A DNA stretch of 10,047 bases, taken from IMG/VR virus record IMGVR_UViG_2706794662_000010. One strand, 5' to 3'. The notes beneath the pieces were generated by a model, which was given only the letters and a program-made list of their open reading frames with translations, was not told where the DNA came from and made no database searches. Position 1 is the first letter of the stretch; the number at the start of each line of letters is the position of its first letter. The position numbers and the translations under genes are program-made. The stretch comes from a virus. Taxonomy: Duplodnaviria > Heunggongvirae > Uroviricota > Caudoviricetes. Shown here one piece after another: positions 1 to 10,047 of this stretch.

Positions 1-311
1 GCACCGCCGTTGCCGCGAATAGACTCGCCACCCCAAGAAATATTAATGGGGTTCCCTTTGACGGGACGCAGGACATAAACATCACTTCTGGTATAACACA
101 GCAGGATGCGGATTCCCGATATATCCAGGATATCAGGCTGGGAGCAGAGAACAGGCAGGTAATGTACGGTGGGGCATATTACTCTGCGTACGGTAATGTT
201 ATGGCAGGCCTGCAGATTGACAGTAAAGTTGATGCTTCAAACGATTTTATAGCATTCAGACCCCTGCAAAAATTAGTCGGAGGTACATGGATTACGGTAT
301 CTCAGTTATAA
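1..311 (+). CDS. Tail fibre protein, C-terminal (variable) part; 5' end lies upstream of the window
   Basis: Open frame 3..311 (stop TAA 309-311) with no start in window. Translation ends ...YGGAYYSAYGNVMAGLQIDSKVDASNDFIAFRPLQKLVGGTWITVSQL. It sits directly upstream of a tail-fibre assembly gene, and its C-terminal motif (RPLQ.L..G.W.T) recurs in the inverted cassette at 916-1058. Confidence 0.6.
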   Translation, partial: TAVAANRLATPRNINGVPFDGTQDINITSGITQQDADSRYIQDIRLGAENRQVMYGGAYYSAYGNVMAGLQIDSKVDASNDFIAFRPLQKLVGGTWITVSQL

Positions 312-362
312 ATAGTCAGTAAATAATATATTTTAAAACAGATTTATTTCCAGGAGGATTTT

Positions 363-884
363 ATGGAACTAAAAAATATAACCCGTTATTATCCTGAAAA
401 TATGCCATATGGTAATAATGTTCAGTATTTCCAGAGTGAAGATGGTAAGGATTTCTACGAATCCCTGCCATTATTCACCAAAAAATATAAACTTTGCATA
501 ACACCTGACAGCGGCGTTATCTGCTCAATATCACAGGACGCCTCGGCGCTGTATCCTGCGGGGTTTTCTGTGGTTGAGGTCGATGAACTCCCTGAAGGCA
601 CGGATATTTCAGGAAACTGGAAGTTTGATAATGGCATAATCTCCCGTATTCCGGTTAACTACGCAAGAAAACTGGAAGCAATGCGCCAGTCATATCTTAA
701 TCAGGCATATGAAAAAATTAATGACTGGAGAACGGAGCTACAACTGGGCACCATCAGCGATGAAGACAGAGCAGCACTTACCCAATGGATGGCATACATC
801 AGTCAGGTGAAGAAAATGGAACTACCCGCCATTAAAACAGAAGCTGAATTTAACGCCATTAAATGGCCTGAGCAGCCACAGTAA
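363..884 (+). CDS. tfa: Tail fibre assembly chaperone (Tfa / Mu U-like)
   Basis: 173-aa ORF with AGGAGG RBS at 351-356, 6 nt before the ATG. C-terminal region (...DEDRAALTQWMAYISQVKKMELPAIKTEAEFNAIKWPEQPQ) resembles the conserved C-terminus of phage tail-fibre assembly proteins, and it lies immediately 3' of a fibre gene. Confidence 0.75.
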   Translation: MELKNITRYYPENMPYGNNVQYFQSEDGKDFYESLPLFTKKYKLCITPDSGVICSISQDASALYPAGFSVVEVDELPEGTDISGNWKFDNGIISRIPVNYARKLEAMRQSYLNQAYEKINDWRTELQLGTISDEDRAALTQWMAYISQVKKMELPAIKTEAEFNAIKWPEQPQ

Positions 885-887
885 TAA

Positions 888-907
888 AGAAGGCCGGAAG
901 GCCTTCT
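888..907. terminator. Perfect hairpin AGAAGGCC-GGAA-GGCCTTCT between convergent genes; likely bidirectional terminator
   Basis: 8-bp GC-rich stem with 4-nt loop, 3 nt after the tfa stop and 9 nt before the stop of the minus-strand fibre cassette; flanked by A/T-rich sequence on both sides. Confidence 0.5.
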
Positions 908-915
908 GAATATCA

Positions 916-1058
916 TTATATACTTGCAGCCGTCACCCATGCTCCATTTAACAGATACTGCAACGGCCGGTAATACACGCCGCCGACGTTATCTGCCGTA
1001 TTCTTACCGACATCCTGTACTTTAATTCCGGTAAGAACATTGCCGCCCCCCAGATTCA
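916..1058 (-). CDS. Alternative tail-fibre C-terminal cassette (S'-like), inverted relative to the upstream fibre gene; 5' part runs into the N-run
   Basis: Minus-strand frame ending at stop 916-918 encodes ...NLGGGNVLTGIKVQDVGKNTADNVGGVYYRPLQYLLNGAWVTAASI. This shares the terminal motif YRPLQyLlnGaWvT with the plus-strand fibre end (FRPLQKLVGGTWIT). Maximum size is about 118 codons before the invertase start region. Confidence 0.55.
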
Positions 1059-1326
1059 NNNNNNNNNNNNNNNNNNNNNNNNNNNNNNNNNNNNNNNNNN
1101 NNNNNNNNNNNNNNNNNNNNNNNNNNNNNNNNNNNNNNNNNNNNNNNNNNNNNNNNNNNNNNNNNNNNNNNNNNNNNNNNNNNNNNNNNNNNNNNNNNNN
1201 NNNNNNNNNNNNNNNNNNNNNNNNNNNNNNNNNNNNNNNNNNNNNNNNNNNNNNNNNNNNNNNNNNNNNNNNNNNNNNNNNNNNNNNNNNNNNNNNNNNN
1301 NNNNNNNNNNNNNNNNNNNNNNNNNN
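1059..1326. other. Run of 268 N (masked or unsequenced bases)
   Basis: Directly visible in the sequence. It covers the 5' part of the inverted fibre cassette, the expected invertase promoter and crossover site, and the invertase N-terminus. Confidence 1.
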
Positions 1327-1850
1327 TACAAAGAAATGCGCTGGAATGTGCAGGATGTGAGCTGTTTTTCGAAGACAGAATAAGCGGTAAGACAAGGGAG
1401 CGTCCCGGACTTAAACGCGCATTAAAGCGACTCCGGCCAGGGGATACCCTGCTGGTCTGGAAACTGGATCGCCTTGGACGCAGTATGCAGCACCTTGTCC
1501 TTTTAACAGAAGAACTCCGGCAACGCGGCGTTAACTTCCGCAGCATTACGGACAATATTGATACATCCACTCCCATGGGACGTTTCTTTTTCCATATAAT
1601 GGGCGCGCTGGCGGAAATGGAGCGGGAACTCATTATTGAACGTACACGCGCGGGTCTTGCTGCTGCCCGTGCTCAGGGGCGTCATGGCGGCAGACCTCAG
1701 AAACTGACAGAGAAAGAGCGGGAGCAAATCGCCCGTTTGCTGGCTAATGGCGAGTCCCGTAAACAAATCGCACTGATATTTGATATTGGCCTTTCCACCC
1801 TTTATCGTTATTTTCCTGCCTCACCAGCTCCGTCACCAAAAGTACCGTGA
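1327..1850 (+). CDS. Serine DNA invertase, Gin/Pin/Cin/Hin family (visible C-terminal ~173 codons; start masked, estimated near 1278)
   Basis: Frame beginning at 1329 reads QRNALECAGCELFFEDRISGKTRERPGLKRALKRLRPGDTLLVWKLDRLGRSMQHLVLLTEELRQRGVNFRSITDNIDTSTPMGRFFFHIMGALAEMERELIIERTRAGLAAARAQGRHGGRPQKLTEKEREQIARLLANGESRKQIALIFDIGLSTLYRYF..., stop 1848-1850. Shows the resolvase/invertase core (DRLGRS, MGRFFFH, GALAEMEREL) and a C-terminal HTH; near-colinear with Gin/Pin as recalled. Confidence 0.9.
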
Positions 1851-1935
1851 CGCTTTTTTGAATTTCCGCAAAACACATATTTTTCAGCGGTCGCTATTCT
1901 GACTCTGTTTAATTCAGAAACAGGCAGAAAAGACG

Positions 1936-3990
1936 ATGTCAGACTCCAAGTGGAAAATGCTCTCCGCCATGCCCGGAGAGTTTTCAGTCAAGGTTGCCGG
2001 TGGCACGGTGGCATTTATTGAAAGCCCTTTCCGCCCTTCGGGTAATAAAGGGGGGATCACCTTCGCAGACTGCGTGATCCGCTTCAGCACGAAAGAGCCA
2101 TTATGGGTAATGCCGGTATCCGGTAATCCCAGTGCAGAAATCACCAGTTCAGGCGTGACTGGCATCATTCCAATCACATCTGACGTGGCCGGAACGCTCA
2201 CGCCCTCCGACTGGAATGCACCGGATAACGCCGGGCCTTCCGGTAGCACGAATGGCAGCAGTTCAGAGCCGGAATATTACTTTGTTGTCATTCTCGCGGG
2301 TCAGTCAAATGGCATGGCCTACGGCGAGGGGCTGCCGTTACCGGATTCGTTTGACCGCCCGGACCCACGCATTAAGCAACTGGCACGCCGCAGTACGGTA
2401 ACGCCCAACGGTACGTCGTGTACATACAACGACATCATTCCGGCAGACCACTGCCTGCATGATGTTCAGGATATGAGCGGGATAAACCACCCGAAAGCTG
2501 ATCTGGCAAAAGGCCAGTACGGGACTGTCGGTCAGGGGTTGCATATTGCCAAAAAACTGCTTCCCTATATCCCACAGAATGCCGGGATACTTCTGGTGCC
2601 CTGTTGTCGTGGCGGGTCAGCATTCACCACTGGAGCCGACGGCTCATTCAGTGAGGCCAGCGGTGCTTCCGCTGATTCTTCACGCTGGGGGGCCGGTAAA
2701 CCTCTGTATCAGGACCTGGTAAGCCGCACCAAAGTCGCGCTGGCGAAAAACCCGAAAAACAAACTTCTGGCTGTGGTCTGGATGCAGGGAGAGGCAGACC
2801 TTGCCTCAGGAAGCCAGCAGCATAATAGTTTATTCACGGCCATGGTTCAGCAGTTCAGAACTGACCTGGCTCCGCTTGCTGCGCAGTGCGTGAGTGGAAA
2901 TGCCACCACGGTGCCGTGGATTTGCGGTGATACCACGTATTACTGGAAAAACGCTGGCACCGATAAATATGAGGCAGTATACGGTGGCTACAAAGGCAAG
3001 GAAGCACAGAAAATTTTCTTTGTACCGTTCCTGACGGATGAGAATGGACAGAGCACGCCAACGAATGCTCCGGCGGAAGACCCGGATATTGTGGCTGTCG
3101 GGTATTACGGTGCAGCATCCCGAACCCAGGGCAGTTTTGTTTCGACACAGCGTGACAGCCATTTCAGCTCATGGGCACGCAGGGGCGTCATTTCAGACCG
3201 TCTGGCCTCAGCTATTATGCTCCATGCAGGGCGCACGGCTGAACTGATGCGCGGGCAGACCGTGACACCACCGGATGAGAAGCCGTCACCTGATACACCA
3301 TCAAAACCGTCCACGCCACCCGCAGACACCACGACGATGAGTACGCTATTTGCTTACCGGGCATCTGAGTCTGAAGGACGGTTGACACCACAGGGTTGGG
3401 CTGCCGGAGGTGGCAAGGCTCAAATCGTGGATGATGCCGGAGCCAGCGGGGGTAAGGCAATGAAACTGACCAAGGAAACAGGAAGAGCCCCCTGGTACCT
3501 TGAGCATGATGCTGGTAATGGTGCGGACCTGCTGGGTAAAGGTGGTCTTGTCAGTTGTCGTTTTAAACTCGATGGCGCGCTTACGGCTAATCAGTACGCA
3601 CTGGCGCTGTACTGGCCGGTTTCTGCCCTGCCGCAAGGGGTTACTCTGGAAGGAAATGCCGGTCATAACCTGCTGGCATCGTTCTACGTACAGAGCGATG
3701 CCACAGACCTTAACGTGATGTATCACAAAGGAAACACGGCGCAGAACACGAAGCTGGGGTCATTCGGCGCATTTAATAACGAATGGCATACGCTGGGCTT
3801 CCGTTTTGCCGGTAACAACAGTATTGAGGTGACGCCGGTCATTGATGGTAAGGACGGGACACCATTCATGCTGTCGCAGTCTCCGGTCGGCACGTTTACG
3901 GCAGACAAGTTGCGCGTGACCGATATCACTAAAAATGCGACTTACCCGGTACTGATTGACAGTATCGTGGTGGAAGTGAATAACGCGTAA
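1936..3990 (+). CDS. SASA/SGNH-family carbohydrate O-acetylesterase with Pro/Thr linker and C-terminal lectin-like domain (prophage NanS-p-like sialate O-acetylesterase candidate)
   Basis: 684-aa uninterrupted ORF. Contains the GQSN motif (codons 2299-2310, candidate catalytic Ser at 2305-2307) and a downstream WMQGEAD block typical of the SASA/DUF303 esterase family. A TPPDEKPSPDTPSKPSTPPADTTT linker lies at about 3262-3335, followed by a ~215-aa beta-rich domain. No signal peptide. Weak RBS; ATG at 1957 is an alternative start. Confidence 0.65.
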   Translation: MSDSKWKMLSAMPGEFSVKVAGGTVAFIESPFRPSGNKGGITFADCVIRFSTKEPLWVMPVSGNPSAEITSSGVTGIIPITSDVAGTLTPSDWNAPDNAGPSGSTNGSSSEPEYYFVVILAGQSNGMAYGEGLPLPDSFDRPDPRIKQLARRSTVTPNGTSCTYNDIIPADHCLHDVQDMSGINHPKADLAKGQYGTVGQGLHIAKKLLPYIPQNAGILLVPCCRGGSAFTTGADGSFSEASGASADSSRWGAGKPLYQDLVSRTKVALAKNPKNKLLAVVWMQGEADLASGSQQHNSLFTAMVQQFRTDLAPLAAQCVSGNATTVPWICGDTTYYWKNAGTDKYEAVYGGYKGKEAQKIFFVPFLTDENGQSTPTNAPAEDPDIVAVGYYGAASRTQGSFVSTQRDSHFSSWARRGVISDRLASAIMLHAGRTAELMRGQTVTPPDEKPSPDTPSKPSTPPADTTTMSTLFAYRASESEGRLTPQGWAAGGGKAQIVDDAGASGGKAMKLTKETGRAPWYLEHDAGNGADLLGKGGLVSCRFKLDGALTANQYALALYWPVSALPQGVTLEGNAGHNLLASFYVQSDATDLNVMYHKGNTAQNTKLGSFGAFNNEWHTLGFRFAGNNSIEVTPVIDGKDGTPFMLSQSPVGTFTADKLRVTDITKNATYPVLIDSIVVEVNNA

Positions 3991-4005
3991 GCAGGATAAA
4001 AAAAT

Positions 4006-4038
4006 GCCGCCGGTAAGGGAAAACAAGAAACCGGCGGC
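4006..4038. terminator. Hairpin GCCGCCGGT-(15 nt)-ACCGGCGGC flanked by A-tracts; possible terminator, orientation ambiguous
   Basis: 9-bp GC stem 16 nt after the esterase stop. The plus strand has A-runs on both sides, so the minus strand has U-tracts; it would be more efficient for minus-strand transcripts. Confidence 0.35.
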
Positions 4039-4134
4039 AAAAAGATCGTTATATCCAAAGCAAAAAATGCAGTGCACCTTTTTACCTAACAGATATTACC
4101 GGTGTCAACACCATGTCAATAATTGGGAGGGATA

Positions 4135-4317
4135 ATGACATTTTTACAGCTTATTTTATTGTATTTCTGCACGGCAGTATGTGCGTTATATCTGGTGAGT
4201 GGTGGTTATAAGGCCATCAGAAATTATGTTCGCCGCAAAATTGAGGACGCAGCAGCTGAAAAACTCAGTAAAACAGCGCAGGTAACTCCGCTCCCAAAAG
4301 ACCCGACCCAGCCCTGA
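4135..4317 (+). CDS. Small membrane protein (one predicted N-terminal TM helix, charged C-terminal tail), unknown function
   Basis: ATG at 4135 preceded by GGGAGG (4125-4130). MTFLQLILLYFCTAVCALYLVSGGYKAIRNYVRRK... has a hydrophobic N-terminus followed by a basic stretch. The track ORF from TTG 4123 has no RBS. Confidence 0.5.
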   Translation: MTFLQLILLYFCTAVCALYLVSGGYKAIRNYVRRKIEDAAAEKLSKTAQVTPLPKDPTQP

Positions 4318-4352
4318 TTGCAGGGCTTTATTCCCGCATAAGGAGGATATAC

Positions 4353-4607
4353 ATGCCAGAAATTAAAGGCACCGTCACTGAAGACCTGGTAAAACAGGCA
4401 CTGTATTCCGGTGAAGTAAATAAGTTGCTGAAAGCGCAGGTCCGCAAGGATTTTGAGGCACAAATCGACACTTACGTTGATGAAGTGCTGGCAAAACTTA
4501 TTGGGCCAGCAGTTGCGGCCAGTGATGCTGATAATGAGCCGAAAACCGACGCGCAGCCAGAGCAACCAGACCCGGCTCAGCCCGGAACTGACAGTACCAT
4601 GATGTAA
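4353..4607 (+). CDS. Small acidic protein (84 aa), unknown function
   Basis: Strong RBS AGGAGG (4341-4346) 6 nt before the ATG. About 16 acidic versus 8 basic residues, with a Pro/Gln/Asp-rich C-terminus. Followed by a hairpin at 4613-4640. Confidence 0.6.
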   Translation: MPEIKGTVTEDLVKQALYSGEVNKLLKAQVRKDFEAQIDTYVDEVLAKLIGPAVAASDADNEPKTDAQPEQPDPAQPGTDSTMM

Positions 4608-4612
4608 CAATA

Positions 4613-4640
4613 CAAACCGGTGGTGTCCTCTGCCGGTTTG
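4613..4640. terminator. Hairpin CAAACCGG-(12 nt)-CCGGTTTG downstream of the small acidic ORF; weak candidate terminator
   Basis: 8-bp stem 6 nt after the stop codon at 4605-4607; no clear U-tract. Confidence 0.3.
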
Positions 4641-4774
4641 ACACTAATGAAAACATCTTTGCCGCTATCCAGCCATATGTAATCGCTGGATAGTATTTCG
4701 TATTCAGAAATATAGCTGCTTATGGAGCAGTCAATCCTGCTTCCCCATCCGGGCAGGCAAATGAACCGGTATCA

Positions 4775-5068
4775 TTAGTCCGATTCACGCTTTTGTAGAA
4801 TCGTTCCCAGAATGCTATACAGCTCATTAGCCTGTTGCTCCATCATTGAGACGGAGGCTATACGGTGCAAAGTGATTTCAGGAGGTGGCACACCTCCATC
4901 TTCTTGCTGTGGAGGAAAAACATAAGATTTAATAAAAAAGTTGAAGCATATGAACTCTCCCGCACTCGAACTGTATTTGCAGGCATCTGAATAATCGGAA
5001 AAATAATCATTATAGATTTCCGCATTTTCAATCATTTTTCGATTTCTCGTCGTTACATGATTGTCCAT
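4775..5068 (-). CDS. Hypothetical protein (97 aa), divergently transcribed from com-mom
   Basis: Minus-strand ORF with AAGAGG RBS 5 nt upstream of the ATG (complement of 5074-5079). No recognisable family. Upstream is a 250-bp AT-rich intergenic region shared with the com promoter region. Confidence 0.5.
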   Translation of the reverse strand: MDNHVTTRNRKMIENAEIYNDYFSDYSDACKYSSSAGEFICFNFFIKSYVFPPQQEDGGVPPPEITLHRIASVSMMEQQANELYSILGTILQKRESD

Positions 5069-5256
5069 AGCAGCCTCTTACGCTGGCAATTAACCAATTG
5101 ACTTCTATAAATTAGTTGATTTGTTTGCTTTGCGGTATTCAAATGTACAATCATTCAGCACTTATGCGTTACAGCACCGTTTAAAATTAGTGATCAAACT
5201 CATAAATTTTCGCTAATGACATTTCGTGTTATTTGTTGTATCAATTAAATAAATCA

Positions 5257-5281
5257 AATCGATCGTTTTTGTCGATCGATT
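5257..5281. promoter_or_regulatory. Palindrome AATCGATCG-TTTTTGT-CGATCGATT carrying two GATC (Dam) sites upstream of com; candidate methylation-sensitive operator
   Basis: Perfect 9-bp inverted repeat with 7-nt spacer; GATC at 5261-5264 and 5274-5277, each inside a CGATCG hexamer; 44 bp upstream of the com start. Mu mom transcription is known to be controlled through clustered Dam sites upstream of com-mom. Confidence 0.4.
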
Positions 5282-5324
5282 GAGTGATAAAGATATCAAC
5301 AACAAAGCAGGAGGTTATGCGGCC

Positions 5325-5525
5325 ATGTATCGAAACATACGGTGCCGACATTGTAACAAGCTACTGGCACGAGCCAGCTTCAGTTATCTGGAAGTTAAAT
5401 GTCCGCGCTGTAAAACCCTCAATCAAATCACATCTCAGAGCGCCACAGAGCACCCCACATACACAAGGAAATCCTGTCGTGGGGAACAGAAAGCAAGTTA
5501 CATCCCGTATCATCAGCACGCCTGA
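5325..5525 (+). CDS. com: Com-like zinc-finger translational activator of mom
   Basis: ATG 5325 with AGGAGG (5309-5314) upstream. [35 protein letters not shown]... matches the Mu Com pattern IRCxxCNKLL...CPRCK (CxxC...CxxC finger) as recalled. Small (66 aa) and overlaps the next ORF in another frame, as in Mu. Confidence 0.8.
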
Positions 5526-6216
5526 ACTTATTCACTATAACGACAATATCGTCGGTTATGGCTCCCGTGAGTTACGGGTTGAGACAATAAGTTGCTGGCT
5601 GGCCCGGCTGGTCGTCGTCAATAAACATTACAGCCATCGTTTCGTAAATAATTCCTACCTTCATCTGGGCATATTTTCAGAACGGGAGCTGGTTGGCGTA
5701 ATGCAATGGGGTTATGCCCTTAATCCAAACAATGGTGCACGCGTCGTAACTGGCACGCAGAACCGCGAATATATGGAGCTTAACCGGTTATGGCTGCATG
5801 ACTGTATGCCGAGAAACTCCGAATCAAGGGCAATCAGTTACGCGCTCAAACTAATCAGACAACTTTATCCGCAGGTGCAGTGGGTTCAGTCGTTTGCAGA
5901 TGAGCGTTGTGGCTGTCTTGGTGTCGTGTACCAGGCAAGCAATTTTGATTATGTAGGCAGTCATGAAACAACATTCTATGAACTTGATGGCGAGTGGTAT
6001 CACGAGATTTGCAAGAATGCAATCAAACGAGGAGGACAGCGAGGTGAACATCTGCGGACTAATATCGACAGAGCCAGTGTTCATAAATTCCGTCAGTTTC
6101 GTTACATCCGGTTTCTGGACAAGAGAGCCAGAAAACGCCTTAACACAAAGCTATTCAAAGTCCAGCCTTACCCAAAACCACAAACAGTTAAAACTGGTTT
6201 GAAAGAGAGTGAATGA
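5479..6216 (+). CDS. mom: Mom-like DNA-modification protein (anti-restriction adenine modification); start codon uncertain
   Basis: Long ORF in the +1 frame relative to com, overlapping the com 3' end. Candidate GTG start at 5479 with AAGGA 9 nt upstream, giving about 245 aa. Assignment rests on the com coupling and the Mu-like gene order invertase-com-mom; the body was not matched to Mom from memory. Confidence 0.6.
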
Positions 6217-6252
6217 ACGCTTAAAAACTCATTCTAAAACTCAAAAGAAAAG

Positions 6253-6292
6253 CGCCGATTTAGTATCAAATAAGTTGCGTATCGGCGTTTTT
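6253..6292 (+). terminator. Candidate terminator after mom: CGCCGAT-(21 nt)-ATCGGCG followed by TTTTT
   Basis: 7-bp inverted repeat 6253-6259 / 6281-6287 followed by T5 (6288-6292); the loop is unusually long. Confidence 0.35.
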
Positions 6293-6295
6293 CAG

Positions 6296-6327
6296 CGGTA
6301 TCAAATGAAATGCAAATCGGTATCAAA
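6296..6327. repeat. Two exact direct copies of CGGTATCAAA 22 bp apart, plus a third GTATCAAA at 6263-6270, at the module boundary
   Basis: Exact 10-mers at 6296-6305 and 6318-6327, between the mom stop and the point where H homology ends. Possible transposase or recombinase binding iterons. Confidence 0.5.
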
Positions 6328-7046
6328 AAAATCGCCGCGCTATACGCTGCCAGACCCAGACGGGCATTTTCCCGGTCATCCCATGCGCCCTGAAGGTTGG
6401 CCCGGAAAGAGGAGGTTTTACCGCGGCGCTGGCTCCGACTCTGGTACCACTGCCATTTTTTATCCGCCTCATCAAATGCCTTCTGCGCACTGGCGAGCAT
6501 ATCCGCTGAGGATTCCGGACGACCGATATCCAGAATGGCATCCCACATCGATTTGAATGCCTTCCCTGTTTTATCCGCCCAGGTCTCCAGTGTTCCCATG
6601 TTTTCTTTCAGGCGACGGGTCTGCTCATCAAAGCCTTTCGTGGCGATATCGTTCGCCGCCTGCAATGCCCCGGCCTCGTCTCCGGAACGCTGCAGCTGTG
6701 CAACATACGCAATCTGCTCTGCCGTCACGTTACGGAACTGGCGCGCCATCGCCATCAGTCCCGACGTCGGGTCAGTGGTCAGCTTCCCGAAGGCTTCAGC
6801 GACTTTATCCACCTCCACACCGGATGCAGACGCAAAACGCGCGACACTCTGGTTGATGGCATCAAACTGTTCACCACCACGCACACCGGCATTCACCAGG
6901 GCTGCCAGTGACTCTCTCGCCTGGTTAAACGTCAGCCCTGCTGCCTGCCCGGCTCTTGAGAGAGTCAGCATACGATCGGCAGTCAGTCCGGACTGATTAC
7001 CGGAAAGAACCAGGGTTTTATTAAACGCTGAAAGCGTGGAATCTCC

Positions 7047-7319
7047 NNNNNNNNNNNNNNNNNNNNNNNNNNNNNNNNNNNNNNNNNNNNNNNNNNNNNN
7101 NNNNNNNNNNNNNNNNNNNNNNNNNNNNNNNNNNNNNNNNNNNNNNNNNNNNNNNNNNNNNNNNNNNNNNNNNNNNNNNNNNNNNNNNNNNNNNNNNNNN
7201 NNNNNNNNNNNNNNNNNNNNNNNNNNNNNNNNNNNNNNNNNNNNNNNNNNNNNNNNNNNNNNNNNNNNNNNNNNNNNNNNNNNNNNNNNNNNNNNNNNNN
7301 NNNNNNNNNNNNNNNNNNN
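7047..7319. other. Run of 273 N (masked or unsequenced bases)
   Basis: Directly visible; hides the T stop and the H start. Confidence 1.
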
Positions 7320-7717
7320 TCATCCACCATGACATCCGCCACATCCGCAGACGATAAAATATCGCGCCCTCCGTCCCCACCGAACCGGACGCCTCCGGCA
7401 AGTCCTGCCGCTTTCTGCATCAGCATTTTGTCCTCATCCGGCCTCTCCACCTGCTCTTCCTCATGCCGGGGGACAAGCAGACTGAAATCAGAGGGATGCA
7501 TATCCGGATCGCAAAAAAACAGGCTGAGTACAGCGTACGTCAGCCCGGAAAAATGCATATCCAGCTGGGTATCCTGAAAATAATGCGTGCGGTAAAAACG
7601 GCGCCAGTCGGCATATTCGGTGGATGTCATCCCGGCAAGCATGGCGCGCCAGTCGGGTCTCCCCATCTCACGCGCCAGTCTGAGGGCAAAGTTCAGCTCG
7701 CCGTCGAAGACTTTCCC
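7320..7717 (-). CDS. T: Tail assembly chaperone T region, expressed as G-T fusion by -1 frameshift; 3' end masked
   Basis: Frame -1 relative to G, from the slippery site downward: GKVFDGELNFALRLAREMGRPDWRAMLAGMTSTEYADWRRFYRTHYFQDTQLDMHFSGLTYAVLSLFFCDPDMHPSDF...MLMQKAAGLAGGVRFG..., lambda gpT-like as recalled. The track ORF tail at 6983-7046 is an off-frame reading of H, not T. Confidence 0.8.
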
Positions 7718-8124
7718 GCAGAAAAATCATCATCAGTCAGCGTGTTATTTTTCGCCACTTCAGTAATATCAGTATCCGGACGAACAGCTTCGATCATCCC
7801 GGACAGGCACAACACCACGTCTTCCGCCCGGGCAATGGCATCGGCAGGCCAGGTGGTGAGCACTTCCTGCTCTATCTTCATCACGGCCTCATTCATTGAC
7901 GGTGACTGCGTTTTCTGTGGATGGTTATGCCACAGGGACATCGCCACCAGAAACGCGCCGGTTCTGACGAGATCTTCCACGCTTACCTGCAGGTTGCCGC
8001 TGGATTCTGCCTGTTCTGCACGCCGTTTCAGGAGGGCAAGATGCTCGATACGCTGCAGCGCAGACAATTCGGAAAGCGTGACAGACACACCGTTATATTC
8101 AAATTGTTCTGTTTTCAGAAACAT
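7693..8124 (-). CDS. G: Tail assembly chaperone G
   Basis: 143-aa ORF MFLKTEQFEYNGVSVTLSELSALQRIEHLALLKRRAEQAES...AMSLWHNHPQKTQ..., near-colinear with lambda gpG as recalled; sits between V and T. Confidence 0.9.
   Translation of the reverse strand: MFLKTEQFEYNGVSVTLSELSALQRIEHLALLKRRAEQAESSGNLQVSVEDLVRTGAFLVAMSLWHNHPQKTQSPSMNEAVMKIEQEVLTTWPADAIARAEDVVLCLSGMIEAVRPDTDITEVAKNNTLTDDDFSAGKSSTAS
7711..7717 (-). promoter_or_regulatory. Programmed -1 ribosomal frameshift slippery heptamer G GGA AAG (G-T fusion)
   Basis: Minus-strand GGGAAAG, in-frame as G|GGA|AAG in the G frame, 16-22 nt upstream of the G stop (7693-7695). Same motif and position as the lambda G-T frameshift site. Confidence 0.75.
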
Positions 8125-8137
8125 GTATTACCTCCGT

Positions 8138-8890
8138 TTACCCTGCAGCGCCCGCTTCAGTAACGGTGACTTCAGCCACTGCGGCGAACTGACCATTTCC
8201 GCTCACCACAGGGATCTGCACCTTACCTGTCGCCACGCCGTTTACCGTAATTGTCATATCTTTCACACTAATGGTGGCTTTCGACGGATCGGCGGAAACC
8301 GCTCTGAACGTCTTGTCGGTTGCACTTTCCGGCTCAAAAGAAACCGTCAGGGTGGTTGTTTTCCCTTTTGCCACCGTACCGGATGTCGGCGTCACCTTAA
8401 TCGCACTGACCGGCGTAATTTTGCTGCGTTCTTCCGCTACAGAAGGTTTACCCACGTTAGTGACTTTCACCGTGCGGGTGATCACTTCTTTCGCCGTCAC
8501 GGCCTTACCGATACTGCTGACCCAGCCACGAAACACATCCACCGTGCCATTCGGAAAACGGATTTTATAGGCCCGGACATCGCCGCTTTCAAACCAGCCT
8601 ATAAGCCCTTTCTGGCCTTCCTCTCCCGGTTTCCAGGCCAGCGTAAAACTGGTATCACCTGCAGATTTCTGCCCCTGCCCGGTCGCGCTCCAGTCCGCGT
8701 CTTCATCATCCAGGTAGTTATCATCATAGGATTCAGCCGTCATCTCGCCCGGCGTCAGATCCTTCACCTTAGCCAGTCGCTGCCAGTCATCGTCTGACAA
8801 CGGGTTTGCATAAGCATCAGCCTTGCCGTTGTAAACCCACAGAGTGGTACCGGCACCTTTTACCGGCTCCAGGGGATTTGGTGTTGCCAT
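8138..8890 (-). CDS. V: Major tail tube protein V with C-terminal Ig-like domain
   Basis: 250-aa ORF ...[58 protein letters not shown]...[42 protein letters not shown]..., lambda gpV-like as recalled. Confidence 0.92.
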
Positions 8891-8897
8891 ATCGTCC

Positions 8898-9293
8898 TCA
8901 CATCTCGTATGTAATGGAATAAGTCAGATCCGCAGAGCTCCATAACGCCATATCGTCATCACGACGATACTCATAGCCCTGCGTAACCATCGTGGTAATC
9001 AGTCCTGCCAGTGCAGGGATCGCAGTCATCGCCGGATAAATCCGGCTTTCCATCCACTGATCGAGCTCCGAATCAGGTACCTGTGCCGGTAAAAACACCT
9101 CAATATGCAGTGTGGCCCGCCAGGTATCTGCATCCAGCTCTTCACCGGTATACTCTGCATCCGTCAGATAAACCGCGATCGCAGGAAAATCCTCTTCGTC
9201 AAAAACAACGGGGCGACCATCAAACAGCGTCGCCCCGTGTTCATGCTGCTCGAGTGCATCCAGCACTGCGGCACGAATGTCAGTGTGTTTCAT
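8898..9293 (-). CDS. U: Tail terminator protein U
   Basis: 131-aa [57 protein letters not shown]...[13 protein letters not shown], lambda gpU-like; 4-nt start/stop overlap with Z. Confidence 0.92.
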
Positions 9294-9865
9294 CGTTTTA
9301 TCGCAATCCTCAGTTGTTGTTTCAGCGCGTATGCCAGTTCTTTAGGCAGGCGTTCACGCCGGATACGGTCAACATTCTCATCAAATGCCTGTTTCAGTGG
9401 GGCCGCCATCGGGATTTTCACCACCTGAATGGGAAGGCGATTACGCTTTTTCCTTCCCTTGTCGTCATTGCCCTCCTCATATCTGGCCTGGGGAAGACGT
9501 TGCATAACATGCCAGCGCCCATTATTTAATCGCTGGATAAATGCCCGCTGATAACGATGCTGACCGGCTTTGAGTATGCTGTTCGGACGACGCCCCAGCA
9601 TTCTGATCCCCAGCTTAATCACAGGGAGATCACCGCGGTTAACGATAATTCTGGCATTCGGATTTCTGACCGTCGCCCGTTTCAGTCTGGACCGTTCCTT
9701 TACCAGTTTCCGTCTCACCCTGGTTTCCCGGGCAACCTGTGACGAAGACTGATTAATCGCCGTTGTGGCCACGCGGTTAATGGTCATTGCAGAAGCAGCC
9801 GGAATGGCGTTTTTACGAACCCGGTTCAGATTGTCAATCGCCTGATCAAGCCCTTTTATCGCCAT
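9290..9865 (-). CDS. Z: Tail completion protein Z
   Basis: 191-aa ORF MAIKGLDQAIDNLNRV...RETRVRRKLVKERSRLKRATV...GRWHVMQRL...VVKIPMAAPL...[25 protein letters not shown], lambda gpZ-like. Confidence 0.92.
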   Translation of the reverse strand: MAIKGLDQAIDNLNRVRKNAIPAASAMTINRVATTAINQSSSQVARETRVRRKLVKERSRLKRATVRNPNARIIVNRGDLPVIKLGIRMLGRRPNSILKAGQHRYQRAFIQRLNNGRWHVMQRLPQARYEEGNDDKGRKKRNRLPIQVVKIPMAAPLKQAFDENVDRIRRERLPKELAYALKQQLRIAIKR

Positions 9866-9879
9866 AATTCACCCTGCGT

Positions 9880-10047
9880 TTATCGTCGCCGGTTAACTGC
9901 GGGTGGTTGCCCACGGTTGAGCCAGAGATAACAGCTGCCCCCGTCATCCGGAGATGTCAGCGCCAGTGATATAAGACGGTAATTCGCCATTTGGATTGTC
10001 CGCTCCACCCAACATGTTGTTTCCTTAAGGTTCTCACACCAGAAAGG
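9880..10047 (-). CDS. FII: Head-tail joining protein FII, C-terminal 55 codons (5' end beyond window)
   Basis: Minus-strand frame ending at stop (complement of 9880-9882) reads ...CWVERTIQMANYRLISLALTSPDDGGSCYLWLNRGQPPAVNRRR. The terminal SPDDGGSC.LWL.RG.PPAVNRRR matches the gpFII C-terminus as recalled; upstream similarity is weaker, with a possible short insertion. Confidence 0.6.
   Translation of the reverse strand, partial: PFWCENLKETTCWVERTIQMANYRLISLALTSPDDGGSCYLWLNRGQPPAVNRRR

Follow-up and report, generated by a model that had tools for sequence, protein, structure and literature searches.

The segment at positions 5325–6216 of the window (the whole 10,047-nt stretch of DNA that was analysed) is an ordinary, intact com-mom operon of the phage Mu type, encoding an anti-restriction DNA-modifying enzyme and its translational activator. 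Our full explanation, in which we have high confidence, is that this operon, gated both in translation and in transcription, sits at the right end of a transposable Mu-like prophage. The module is an already known system and the prophage lineage that carries it is already annotated in RefSeq: the RefSeq/PGAP annotation of E. coli AF39 contains the same two CDS with identical boundaries, and the same com and mom genes are annotated across hundreds of E. coli genomes, under the names "tRNA(Gly)-dependent adenine aminoacyltransferase Mom" and "Com family". The locus consequently has little value as a discovery, since RefSeq already contains identical proteins under the names Mom and Com. By alignment, the promoter layout appears to be the sole departure from Mu that we would single out for the module.

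The com and mom genes and their products

The com-mom operon of Mu is a textbook operon, the chemistry of which was solved in 2026. Mu Mom transfers glycine from Gly-tRNA(Gly) to the N6 of adenine in double-stranded DNA, and the glycine adduct rearranges to N6-carbamoylmethyl-adenine, which shields phage DNA from many restriction enzymes. The following genes and signal were identified in the window.

5309..5314, + strand: com ribosome-binding site AGGAGG, 10 nt before the ATG, read from the sequence
5325..5525, + strand: com, ATG to TGA, 66 aa, zinc-ribbon protein, RefSeq WP_014334043.1
5479..6216, + strand: mom, GTG start, TGA end at 6216, 245 aa, RefSeq WP_000528246.1

An earlier, sequence-only reading of this DNA had proposed a Mu-type com-mom module with an out-of-frame overlap and an upstream palindrome, and its positions for com, mom and the palindrome were all confirmed to the base. 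The mom frame is +1 relative to com and the genes overlap by 47 nt, with which RefSeq agrees; from 5317 to 5560 the GTG at 5479 is the only ATG, GTG or TTG that the mom frame contains. The gene order, GUG start and +1 overlap (50 nt) are the same in Mu (AF083977, Mu_52/Mu_53; PDB 8BV8).

When the ORF downstream of com was compared with the Mom and GNAT families it proved to be a full-length Mom, and its product is predicted to be a GNAT-fold, tRNA(Gly)-dependent adenine N6 modification enzyme with an anti-restriction role. The protein matched Pfam Mom (PF25680) at 6.5e-78 (261.5 bits versus a cut-off of 27.1) over profile positions 1–202 of 202, as well as PHROG 1384 at 2.9e-83. The PDB sequence search returned 8BV8, the Mu Mom structure, at 8.8e-123. 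Alignment to Mu Mom was full length with 78% identity, and the failure of the sequence-only reading to match the body of Mom did not stem from the sequence itself. In Mu Mom, R111, S124, D149 and R151 are required, as are W48, H58, Y59, Y159 and W181, and mutation of each of these nine residues reduced or abolished activity (PMC13219725). All nine (9/9) are kept at the aligned positions. The Mom-specific HTH-like insertion (Mu residues ~175–209) aligned with no gap and 27 of its 35 residues identical.

It had also been suggested that this might be a divergent Mom with altered chemistry. We give almost no credence to a different donor or product. The 22% of residues that are unlike Mu Mom and a C-terminal extension of 12 residues could be read that way, but the catalytic and structural residues tested in Mu and the essential insertion are all conserved, and the retention of every key catalytic residue leaves a divergent chemistry unsupported. 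Furthermore, the single gap in the full-length alignment spans 2 residues close to the N-terminus, within a part that Mu Mom can do without (PMC13219725). The activity and toxicity of Mom here are assigned on the strength of its homology to the Mu enzyme.

The product of com is the predicted translational activator of mom. It matched Pfam Zn_ribbon_Com (PF10122) at 7.5e-13 (48.2 bits versus a cut-off of 22.9) and the PHROG annotated as "gpCom control of modification". Its identity to Mu Com is just 44%, with C7, C10, C26 and C29 aligned with the cysteines of the likewise ribbon-type Mu protein. A PDB sequence search with Com gave no match. The NCBIfam searches identified no model for Mom and just a sub-threshold zinc-finger domain for Com, so the RefSeq names evidently derive from other evidence. 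Of 92 related loci that include this region (one locus cut at a contig end, L016, was left out), 86 have a com-type CxxC...CxxC zinc-ribbon ORF upstream of mom, and in 85 of these 86 the ORF ends inside mom, the exception being L014. Com might in principle have been a stand-alone regulator of some other gene; here it is physically coupled to mom. Both genes are under strong purifying selection within the lineage, with a dN/dS of 0.04–0.09 overall (com, <= 0.04; mom, 0.06–0.09).

The right end of the prophage and its insertion

Three features follow mom and extend across the boundary of the element.

6247..6293, + strand: terminator-like inverted repeat after mom, GAAAAGCGCCGAT ... ATCGGCGTTTTTC, with 13-nt arms that are 92% complementary, then a T run
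6263..6344, + strand: right end (attR) of the Mu-like prophage, from repeats and the break in homology; last element base 6344
6345..6971, - strand: N-terminal part of a lambdoid tape-measure gene (H), from Pfam TMP_2 and PHROG tape-measure matches

The terminator function of the first of these is putative because its 21-nt loop is long. The assignment of the right end was based on several observations. There are three direct repeats of GTATCAAA at 6263, 6298 and 6320 (spacing 35 and 22), which presumably are transposase-binding sites, and in another copy of the same prophage (L003) the sequence TTTGATACC is found 17 nt from both the left tip and the right tip. Matches to 812 E. coli records end at 6344–6347, beyond which the flanking genes are unrelated and differ in each genome, and the junction at 6344 was supported by a three-way alignment. 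A search for a 5-bp target-site duplication in the two flanks of L003 matched only 4 bp (TACA). As in Mu, com-mom is the last operon before the phage right end, whereas the transposase-binding repeats (TTTGATAC) differ from those of Mu and the terminal dinucleotide is TA here versus CA in Mu.

In phage PhiR5_1 gene H is intact and continues across the point of the junction. On this alignment, the Mu-like transposable prophage interrupts a lambdoid prophage in the middle of its tape-measure gene, and the locus thereby documents a Mu-like phage that has transposed into, and inactivated, that gene. The sequence-only reading had missed that the module marks where a transposable prophage ends on its right side, and that this prophage is nested in another one.

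E. coli AF39 carries an entire Mu-like prophage of 39 kb whose right arm is the same as here. Members of this E. coli lineage (AF39, NZ_OZ547136.1; described as "inserted Mu-like phage" in Stx phage records, LC727895) are 99.8–99.9% identical in DNA to the window over 5100–6344, with identical Com and Mom, cargo and gene order, and differ in insertion site only, which here is the lambdoid tape-measure gene. A search of 5,426 complete E. coli genomes found no copy of the junction between Mu-like and tape-measure sequence. The lineage itself was identified in 807 of these 5,426 genomes, and the many different sites at which it is inserted imply that it has transposed recently.

Predicted hairpins at the com-mom junction

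Two adjoining hairpins are predicted in the mRNA at the junction of com and mom.

5440..5453, + strand: putative Com-binding hairpin in the mRNA; stem GCGC/GCAC, hexaloop CACAGA, C-A mismatch 5441/5452
5453..5484, + strand: putative translation-inhibition hairpin; CCCCAC (5453–5458) pairs with GUGGGG (5479–5484)

The inhibition hairpin holds the mom ribosome-binding site AAGGA (5465–5469) in its loop and the GUG start in its 3' arm. It folds at -12.6 kcal/mol (z = -2.0), versus -9.5 for the Mu equivalent. This fold, which places the hairpin 5453–5484 over the GUG, supports the earlier proposal that the mom start is masked until Com binds. The shorter hairpin folds alone at -1.7 kcal/mol. The sequence of its loop and flanking bases, GAG-CG-CC-ACA-GAG-CA-CC, agrees with the Com SELEX motif NGAGNNCC(N)2-3GAGNNCC (PMC6483171), with the CC(N)2-3GAG portion at 5443–5450 next to the start-sequestering hairpin.

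Comparison of 20 distinct Mu-like junctions showed that 97% of cells were paired in the two-hairpin layout, and that register shifts reduced this to 23–58%. Covariation was detected at 4 of 4 stem pairs of the Com hairpin, and none of 500 shuffles matched the observed score. The arms of the inhibition hairpin were invariant in the 20 sequences, with a loop of 11 to 20 nt; as the arms never vary, this hairpin is without covariation support, and their conservation could stem in part from the double coding constraint. The whole-window Rfam search (E <= 1) produced 0 matches, the com-mom RNA elements not being a curated family.

The arrangement closely resembles that of Mu, in which a Com hairpin with a C-N-N-N-G-A hexaloop also adjoins a CCCAC/GUGGG inhibitory hairpin. 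The differences are that the inhibitory hairpin here has a 6-bp stem and a loop of 20 nt versus 11 in Mu, and that the Com stem contains the C-A mismatch at 5441/5452, because of which it should be weaker in this lineage than in Mu. In the related locus L021 this position of the stem is a U-A pair. With its weaker Com stem and longer inhibitory loop the locus would make a natural second example for the study of the Com/hairpin mechanism.

While the layout of the translational gate is supported by sequence and covariation, we infer its function, including the binding of Com to the mRNA hairpin, from homology with Mu. We propose that the mom ribosome-binding site and GUG would be locked in the stable hairpin at 5453–5484, and that Com, translated from the same mRNA, would bind the adjoining short hairpin at 5440–5453 (loop CC-ACA-GAG) and thereby open the inhibitory one. 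Mom synthesis would then occur only once Com has accumulated. Mom is toxic in Mu (PMC3378877), which would explain why its synthesis is gated at two levels.

Dam sites and the promoter region of com

The second gate is predicted to act on transcription, and would involve the following features.

5240..5276, unstranded: OxyR-like tetramer site, two half-sites 22 bp apart, consensus score 13/20
5257..5281, unstranded: inverted repeat with two Dam sites, arms AATCGATCG (5257–5265) and CGATCGATT (5273–5281), 7-nt spacer
5288..5294, + strand: candidate -10 TAAAGAT, inferred; Mu has TAAGAT

The palindrome has 9-bp arms with 100% complementarity, and its GATC sites at 5261–5264 and 5274–5277 each lie within CGATCG, 13 bp apart from start to start. 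By alignment, the element AATCGATC-N9-GATCGATT occurs in the same place upstream of com here and in Mu. The sequence-only reading had found the palindrome reminiscent of the Dam control of Mu mom, a resemblance that we would now put more strongly, in that the alignment identifies it as homologous to GATC sites 2 and 3 of Mu mom. A GATC-N9-GATC upstream of com recurs in most enterobacterial Mu-like phages, with the arms of the palindrome conserved and the spacer diverged. It is because of this homology to Mu and Mu-like phages that we consider the palindrome to be real, the chance test not being decisive: a shuffled window contains on average 0.5 perfect inverted repeats of 9 nt with a loop <= 10 nt, and GATC-N9-GATC was present in 13% of shuffles. 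GATC is depleted across the window (23 found versus 37 expected). A third GATC at 5192–5195, 69 nt upstream, is in sequence that only some members of this lineage have and does not belong to the site.

The palindrome and the bases upstream of it also score as an OxyR site. With the consensus ATAGnTnnnAnCTAT-N7-ATAGnTnnnAnCTAT, scored out of 20, the value of 13 was the top score in the window and was reached by 2 of 9,398 positions (top 0.02%). In the same register Mu scored 13/20 and agn43 14/20. The site overlaps a remnant of the 3' end of Mu gin (ATCAATTAA, 5240–5248), and 3.4 kb of cargo genes lie between gin and com here, whereas the two are adjacent in Mu. The likeness to the agn43 (flu) switch is in the core, ATCGATCG-N7-CGATCGAT, which has two GATC sites 13 bp apart and is identical at 21 of 27 positions to agn43 GATC-II/III. 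The agn43 switch differs in having three GATC sites, which are downstream of its transcription start, and in controlling an outer-membrane protein; phase variation is a property of agn43, to which the site here is likened by sequence alone. The GATC spacing in the OxyR half-sites of gtr is 13 bp, as here (PMC2909390), and Mu mom is under Dam/OxyR, C, Fis and Com control (PMC3378877, PMC4461284). Homology therefore makes a Dam/OxyR gate on com-mom transcription, with OxyR binding, the expected arrangement. The palindrome at 5257–5281 together with its upstream bases would form an OxyR site with two Dam targets, to which OxyR would bind and repress when the site is unmethylated, and from which Dam methylation would exclude it.

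Downstream of the Dam sites the layout differs from that of Mu. Alignment showed that ~29 bp containing Mu's C box (TTAT-N6-ATAA), -35 element and T-tract (the T6 spacer) are absent here, with the result that the Dam/OxyR site abuts the presumed -10: only 11 nt lie between its second GATC and the candidate -10, and the distance of the palindrome from the -10 is 11 nt versus 40 nt in Mu. The distance from the candidate -10 to the com ATG is comparable (30 nt versus 28 nt in Mu). This -10 is not conserved in the 96% sublineage; in the relatives L042–L044 a good -10 (TATACT or TATAGT) stands equally far from the two GATC sites. Between the Dam sites and the candidate -10 there is no Mu C-activator box (TTAT-N6-ATAA / ATAACC), and no resident-type late-promoter box CCGCAAAnCCnGCCCC, the consensus for which was built from two or three promoters only, was found near com within 3 mismatches. 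The late activator of this prophage lineage is a Mor/C family protein of the WP_000852372.1 type, for which there is no recognisable box near com. A sigma-70 consensus scan of 4600–6400 identified no promoter on the + strand, its matches being on the minus strand only, upstream of a 97-aa ORF. The earlier suggestion of altered regulation therefore holds as regards this changed layout and not for the reason given, namely two GATC sites rather than Mu's three. Mu GATC1 is indeed absent here, but the two that are retained are the conserved pair.

The loss of the C box, -35 element and T-tract, together with a weak and variable -10 and a carrier prophage that sits within another, disrupted prophage, might suggest that the module is a silent relic, its com-mom unexpressed since the promoter went with the ~29 bp. 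We regard this as highly improbable. Both ORFs are intact and have the low dN/dS given above across sublineages that differ at ~20% of synonymous sites, the RNA control elements are also intact, and the prevalence of the lineage at many insertion sites points to recent transposition.

The same promoter region raises the question of whether com-mom could be independent of the phage late activator, the OxyR/Dam site instead lying over the core promoter as an epigenetic ON/OFF switch with expression in a fraction of lysogens. Activator boxes of the Mu type and of the resident type are both missing, the palindrome is far nearer to the candidate -10 than in Mu, the site closely matches the agn43 switch, and L042–L044 have their good -10 at that same distance. 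Nevertheless, we consider this unlikely. The toxicity of Mom in Mu (PMC3378877) means that selection should oppose unscheduled expression, and the lack of a detectable sigma-70-like promoter fits an activator-dependent promoter with an unrecognised box, the consensus for such boxes resting on so few promoters. The Com gate would in any case limit Mom synthesis. It is very doubtful, in turn, that the lineage's com-mom promoter, lacking a late-activator box, is run by an agn43-like Dam/OxyR switch on the core promoter such that Mom is made in an epigenetically heritable subpopulation of lysogens. If that were true, host DNA would be momylated, and the cell's own restriction and defence interactions would be altered, not those of the progeny phage alone.

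Alternatively, the palindrome may not be an OxyR/Dam site, and may instead be bound by another dimeric regulator, such as the late activator of the lineage, or form an insulating hairpin terminator. Its position relative to the -10 is that of the C box in Mu, and a minus-strand scan flags a terminator-like stem followed by a T-rich tail. This alternative seems quite unlikely to us, as the palindrome does not resemble the boxes of the resident promoters Plys and PI, and the same arms are found in Mu, whose C box is distinct from them and lies downstream. In addition, the conservation of the arms with divergence of the spacer, and a GATC-N9-GATC spacing that also occurs in the proven OxyR/Dam sites of agn43 and gtr, favour the Dam/OxyR gate. 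As a terminator the palindrome was rejected: it was flagged on the minus strand only, no minus-strand gene reads into it, and no T run follows it on the + strand.

With a Dam/OxyR site in place of the C box, the region is a natural promoter variant that could show how dispensable the multilayer control of Mu is. The search for the resident late-promoter box near com also met a single CCGCAAA 7-mer (minus strand, 5129–5135), which was judged to be a chance or unrelated occurrence.

The com and mom genes and their products

The sequence-only reading had proposed a Mu-type com-mom module in which com overlaps, out of frame, a second open reading frame starting at GTG 5479. Both this observation and the main interpretation were right.

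Coding sequences of the module
5325-5525, + strand: com, ATG start, 66 aa, with AGGAGG at 5309-5314 ahead of the ATG
5479-6216, + strand: mom, from GTG to stop, +1 frame relative to com

In the mom frame, GTG 5479 is the sole ATG, GTG or TTG between 5317 and 5560 and hence the sole candidate start, which gives a 245-aa product and a 47-nt overlap with com. The same pair of coding sequences, with identical boundaries, is annotated by RefSeq in Escherichia coli AF39. The system is Mu com-mom, in a common and previously annotated lineage.

The 66-aa protein is identified as a Com zinc ribbon by its match to Pfam PF10122 (48.2 bits, cut-off 22.9), its PHROG match ("gpCom control of modification") and 44% identity to Mu Com with all four cysteines aligned. 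RefSeq names Com (WP_014334043.1; L001, 9226-9426) a "DNA-binding transcriptional regulator", whereas the experimental literature describes an RNA-binding translational activator. The 245-aa protein is likewise identified as full-length Mom, with 78% identity to Mu Mom, full-length similarity to PF25680 (261.5 bits) and matches to PHROG 1384 (2.9e-83) and the solved Mu Mom structure 8BV8 (8.8e-123).

A 2026 study reported that Mu Mom uses Gly-tRNA(Gly) as the donor to place glycine on the N6 of adenine in double-stranded DNA, that the adduct rearranges to N6-carbamoylmethyl-adenine, that mutation of listed residues reduces or abolishes activity and that an HTH-like insertion is essential (PMC13219725). 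The residue numbering of that study begins 10 codons 5' of the GUG, and this offset was applied in our comparison. All nine key residues (W48, H58, Y59, R111, S124, D149, R151, Y159 and W181 of Mu Mom) are kept in the window Mom, and the HTH-like insertion aligns without gaps. Because of this conservation there is no sign in the sequence of altered chemistry, and the earlier suggestion of a chemically divergent Mom was not sustained. Within the lineage, dN/dS was at most 0.04 for com and 0.06-0.09 for mom, values which indicate that both genes are maintained by selection.

Predicted RNA hairpins at the com/mom junction

The target of Com in Mu is a short hairpin adjoining a "translation inhibition structure" whose stem includes the mom GUG, and SELEX gave a Com motif of CC(N)2-3GAG in a loop, with the bipartite form NGAGNNCC(N)2-3GAGNNCC (PMC6483171). 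Positions 5437-5456 of the window (A-GAG-CG-CC-ACA-GAG-CA-CC-CC) agree with the bipartite motif, and folding predicted the start-sequestering stem-loop that the sequence-only reading had anticipated.

Predicted hairpins
5440-5453: putative Com hairpin, stem GCGC/GCAC, hexaloop CACAGA
5453-5458 with 5479-5484: inhibitory hairpin directly after it, CCCCAC paired with GUGGGG, -12.6 kcal/mol (-9.5 kcal/mol for the Mu equivalent)

The mom ribosome-binding site AAGGA (5465-5469) is predicted to lie, partly paired, in the loop of the inhibitory hairpin. Covariation was assessed in 20 distinct junctions with the two-hairpin layout, drawn from 92 related loci (genomes and viral contigs). When the two-helix structure was kept fixed, 97% of cells were paired (n = 20 junctions), and register shifts lowered pairing to 23-58%. 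The Com hairpin had both-sided changes at all four pairs (AUGC/GCAU, GCAC/GUGC, GCGU/ACGC and GUGC/GCAC), and the observed covariation was reached in none of 500 shuffles. The inhibitory stem is invariant in the 20 junctions, with a loop of 11 to 20 nt; this invariance is compatible with function, which covariation cannot prove. In the window lineage, the second pair of the Com hairpin is a C-A mismatch. A single C-to-U substitution at the position of window 5441 makes it a U-A pair in L021, a relative with 99% identity.

The Dam-site palindrome and the promoter region

The palindrome noted earlier upstream of com, with its two GATC sites (at 5261 and 5274), was confirmed: the arms AATCGATCG (5257-5265) and CGATCGATT (5273-5281) are perfectly complementary and separated by 7 nt. 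Its occurrence is not statistically striking in itself, as shuffled windows contained a mean of 0.5 such repeats each and GATC-N9-GATC occurred in 13% of shuffles; its significance comes from homology. In Mu, three GATC sites lie upstream of Pmom, and OxyR binds the unmethylated sites and represses transcription (PMC3378877, PMC4461284). By alignment the palindrome corresponds to Mu GATC2 and GATC3, with the same arms as the Mu AATCGATC-N9-GATCGATT but a diverged spacer, whereas Mu GATC1 has no counterpart in the window. Beside it, at 5240-5248, ATCAATTAA is what remains of the 3'-terminal codons of Mu gin. The GATC-N9-GATC spacing upstream of com is common to most enterobacterial Mu-like phages, and GATC pairs inside OxyR half-sites of the Salmonella gtr switch share it (PMC2909390). 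GATC-II/III of the E. coli agn43 switch, read from K-12, are identical to the palindrome core at 21 of 27 positions. The OxyR tetramer consensus used for scoring, reportedly from Toledano et al., was matched in one common register at 13 of 20 positions by window 5240-5276, 13 of 20 by Mu and 14 by agn43; only two of 9,398 window positions scored as high as 13. Based on the Mu homology, the recurrent GATC spacing, the gtr spacing, the agn43 identity and the consensus score, the element is best read as a putative OxyR/Dam site.

The promoter is where the window truly departs from Mu. In Mu, the box for the late activator C lies between the GATC sites and a poor -35 element (PMC3378877, PMC4461284), and the 40 nt from GATC3 to the -10 TAAGAT contain the C box, the -35 element and a T6 tract. 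In the window the interval between the second GATC and the candidate -10 AAAGAT (5289-5294) is only 11 nt, although the -10 lies at a similar distance from the com ATG (30 nt, and 28 nt in Mu). Conservation of AAAGAT does not extend to the 96% sublineage, and the more remote relatives L042-L044 carry a good TATACT or TATAGT at its position. No sigma-70-like promoter on the + strand passed the scan.

L003, a complete prophage from this lineage, was examined for an alternative activator box. It encodes one Mor/C-family protein, and the promoters of its lysis and head genes have in common CCGCAAAnCCnGCCCC, with TTAYGCTG about 14 nt further on, a candidate box unlike the Mu C box (cATAAyCCC).

Candidate late-promoter box in L003 (minus strand)
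20552-20567, 28739-28754 and 29236-29251: copies ahead of lysis genes, head genes and, with two mismatches, the Mor-family activator gene

The fourth match obtained when two mismatches were allowed (34233-34248) is inside a coding region, and no box of this type was found upstream of com in the window. The earlier proposal of altered regulation holds only for promoter architecture (11 rather than 40 nt, with the Mu C box, -35 and T6 stretch absent), which is the sole departure from the Mu model. In the Mu-like viral contigs L073, L078, L084 and L085 (about 2430-2510), a Com-less variant of the module has mom with an ATG start and three GATC sites directly upstream.

The prophage right end, insertion site and cargo

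Megablast of the module DNA matched 812 records, representing 807 of 5,426 complete E. coli genomes. All matches end at 6344-6347, and the neighboring gene varies (cheB, citF, a P2 capsid gene, diguanylate cyclases), a pattern that we read as marking the end of a transposable phage. The final 82 nt of the element contain three GTATCAAA repeats, and in L003 the same TTTGATACC is present at the left tip, 17 nt in from the end. The last two bases of the right end are TA (6343-6344), compared with CA in Mu, and the left end begins with TG. Only 4 bp (TACA) are duplicated at the L003 flanks, not a clean 5-bp target duplication.

Because a minus-strand lambdoid tape-measure gene occupies the window from 6345 on, and the intact gene H of phage PhiR5_1 continues straight across the junction point, the module is assigned to a Mu-like prophage transposed into another prophage. 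Such a mid-gene insertion would necessarily inactivate gene H. The exact junction was absent from the 5,426 complete E. coli genomes.

Layout of the window
1-6344: Mu-like right arm
363-1850: invertible tail-fiber segment resembling the Mu G segment
363-884, + strand: tail-fiber assembly gene
916-1395, minus strand: tail-fiber and assembly remnants
about 1278-1850: Gin-type serine invertase, C-terminus unlike Mu Gin
1936-3990: cargo, SASA-type carbohydrate esterase with DUF6645, 684 aa
4123-4317: cargo, DUF1378
4353-4607: cargo, DUF826
4775-5068, minus strand: cargo, 97-aa ORF with two sigma-70-like minus-strand promoters
6345-10047: lambdoid prophage, tail genes on the minus strand
about 1056-1331 and about 7036-7332: masked N runs, in the invertase/tail-fiber and lambdoid tail-chaperone/tape-measure regions, respectively

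In Mu the invertase gene and com are adjacent, whereas 3.4 kb of cargo (1936-5068) lies between them in the window. Elsewhere, these cargo families are typically seen in the late regions of lambdoid and Stx phages. In L027, of the 96% sublineage, a different divergent ORF (1768-2232, minus strand; 154 aa, Cys-rich) lies directly upstream of com, and this position is therefore a variable cargo site. Two O157:H7 strains carry a similar phage in a tape-measure gene, at a different position.
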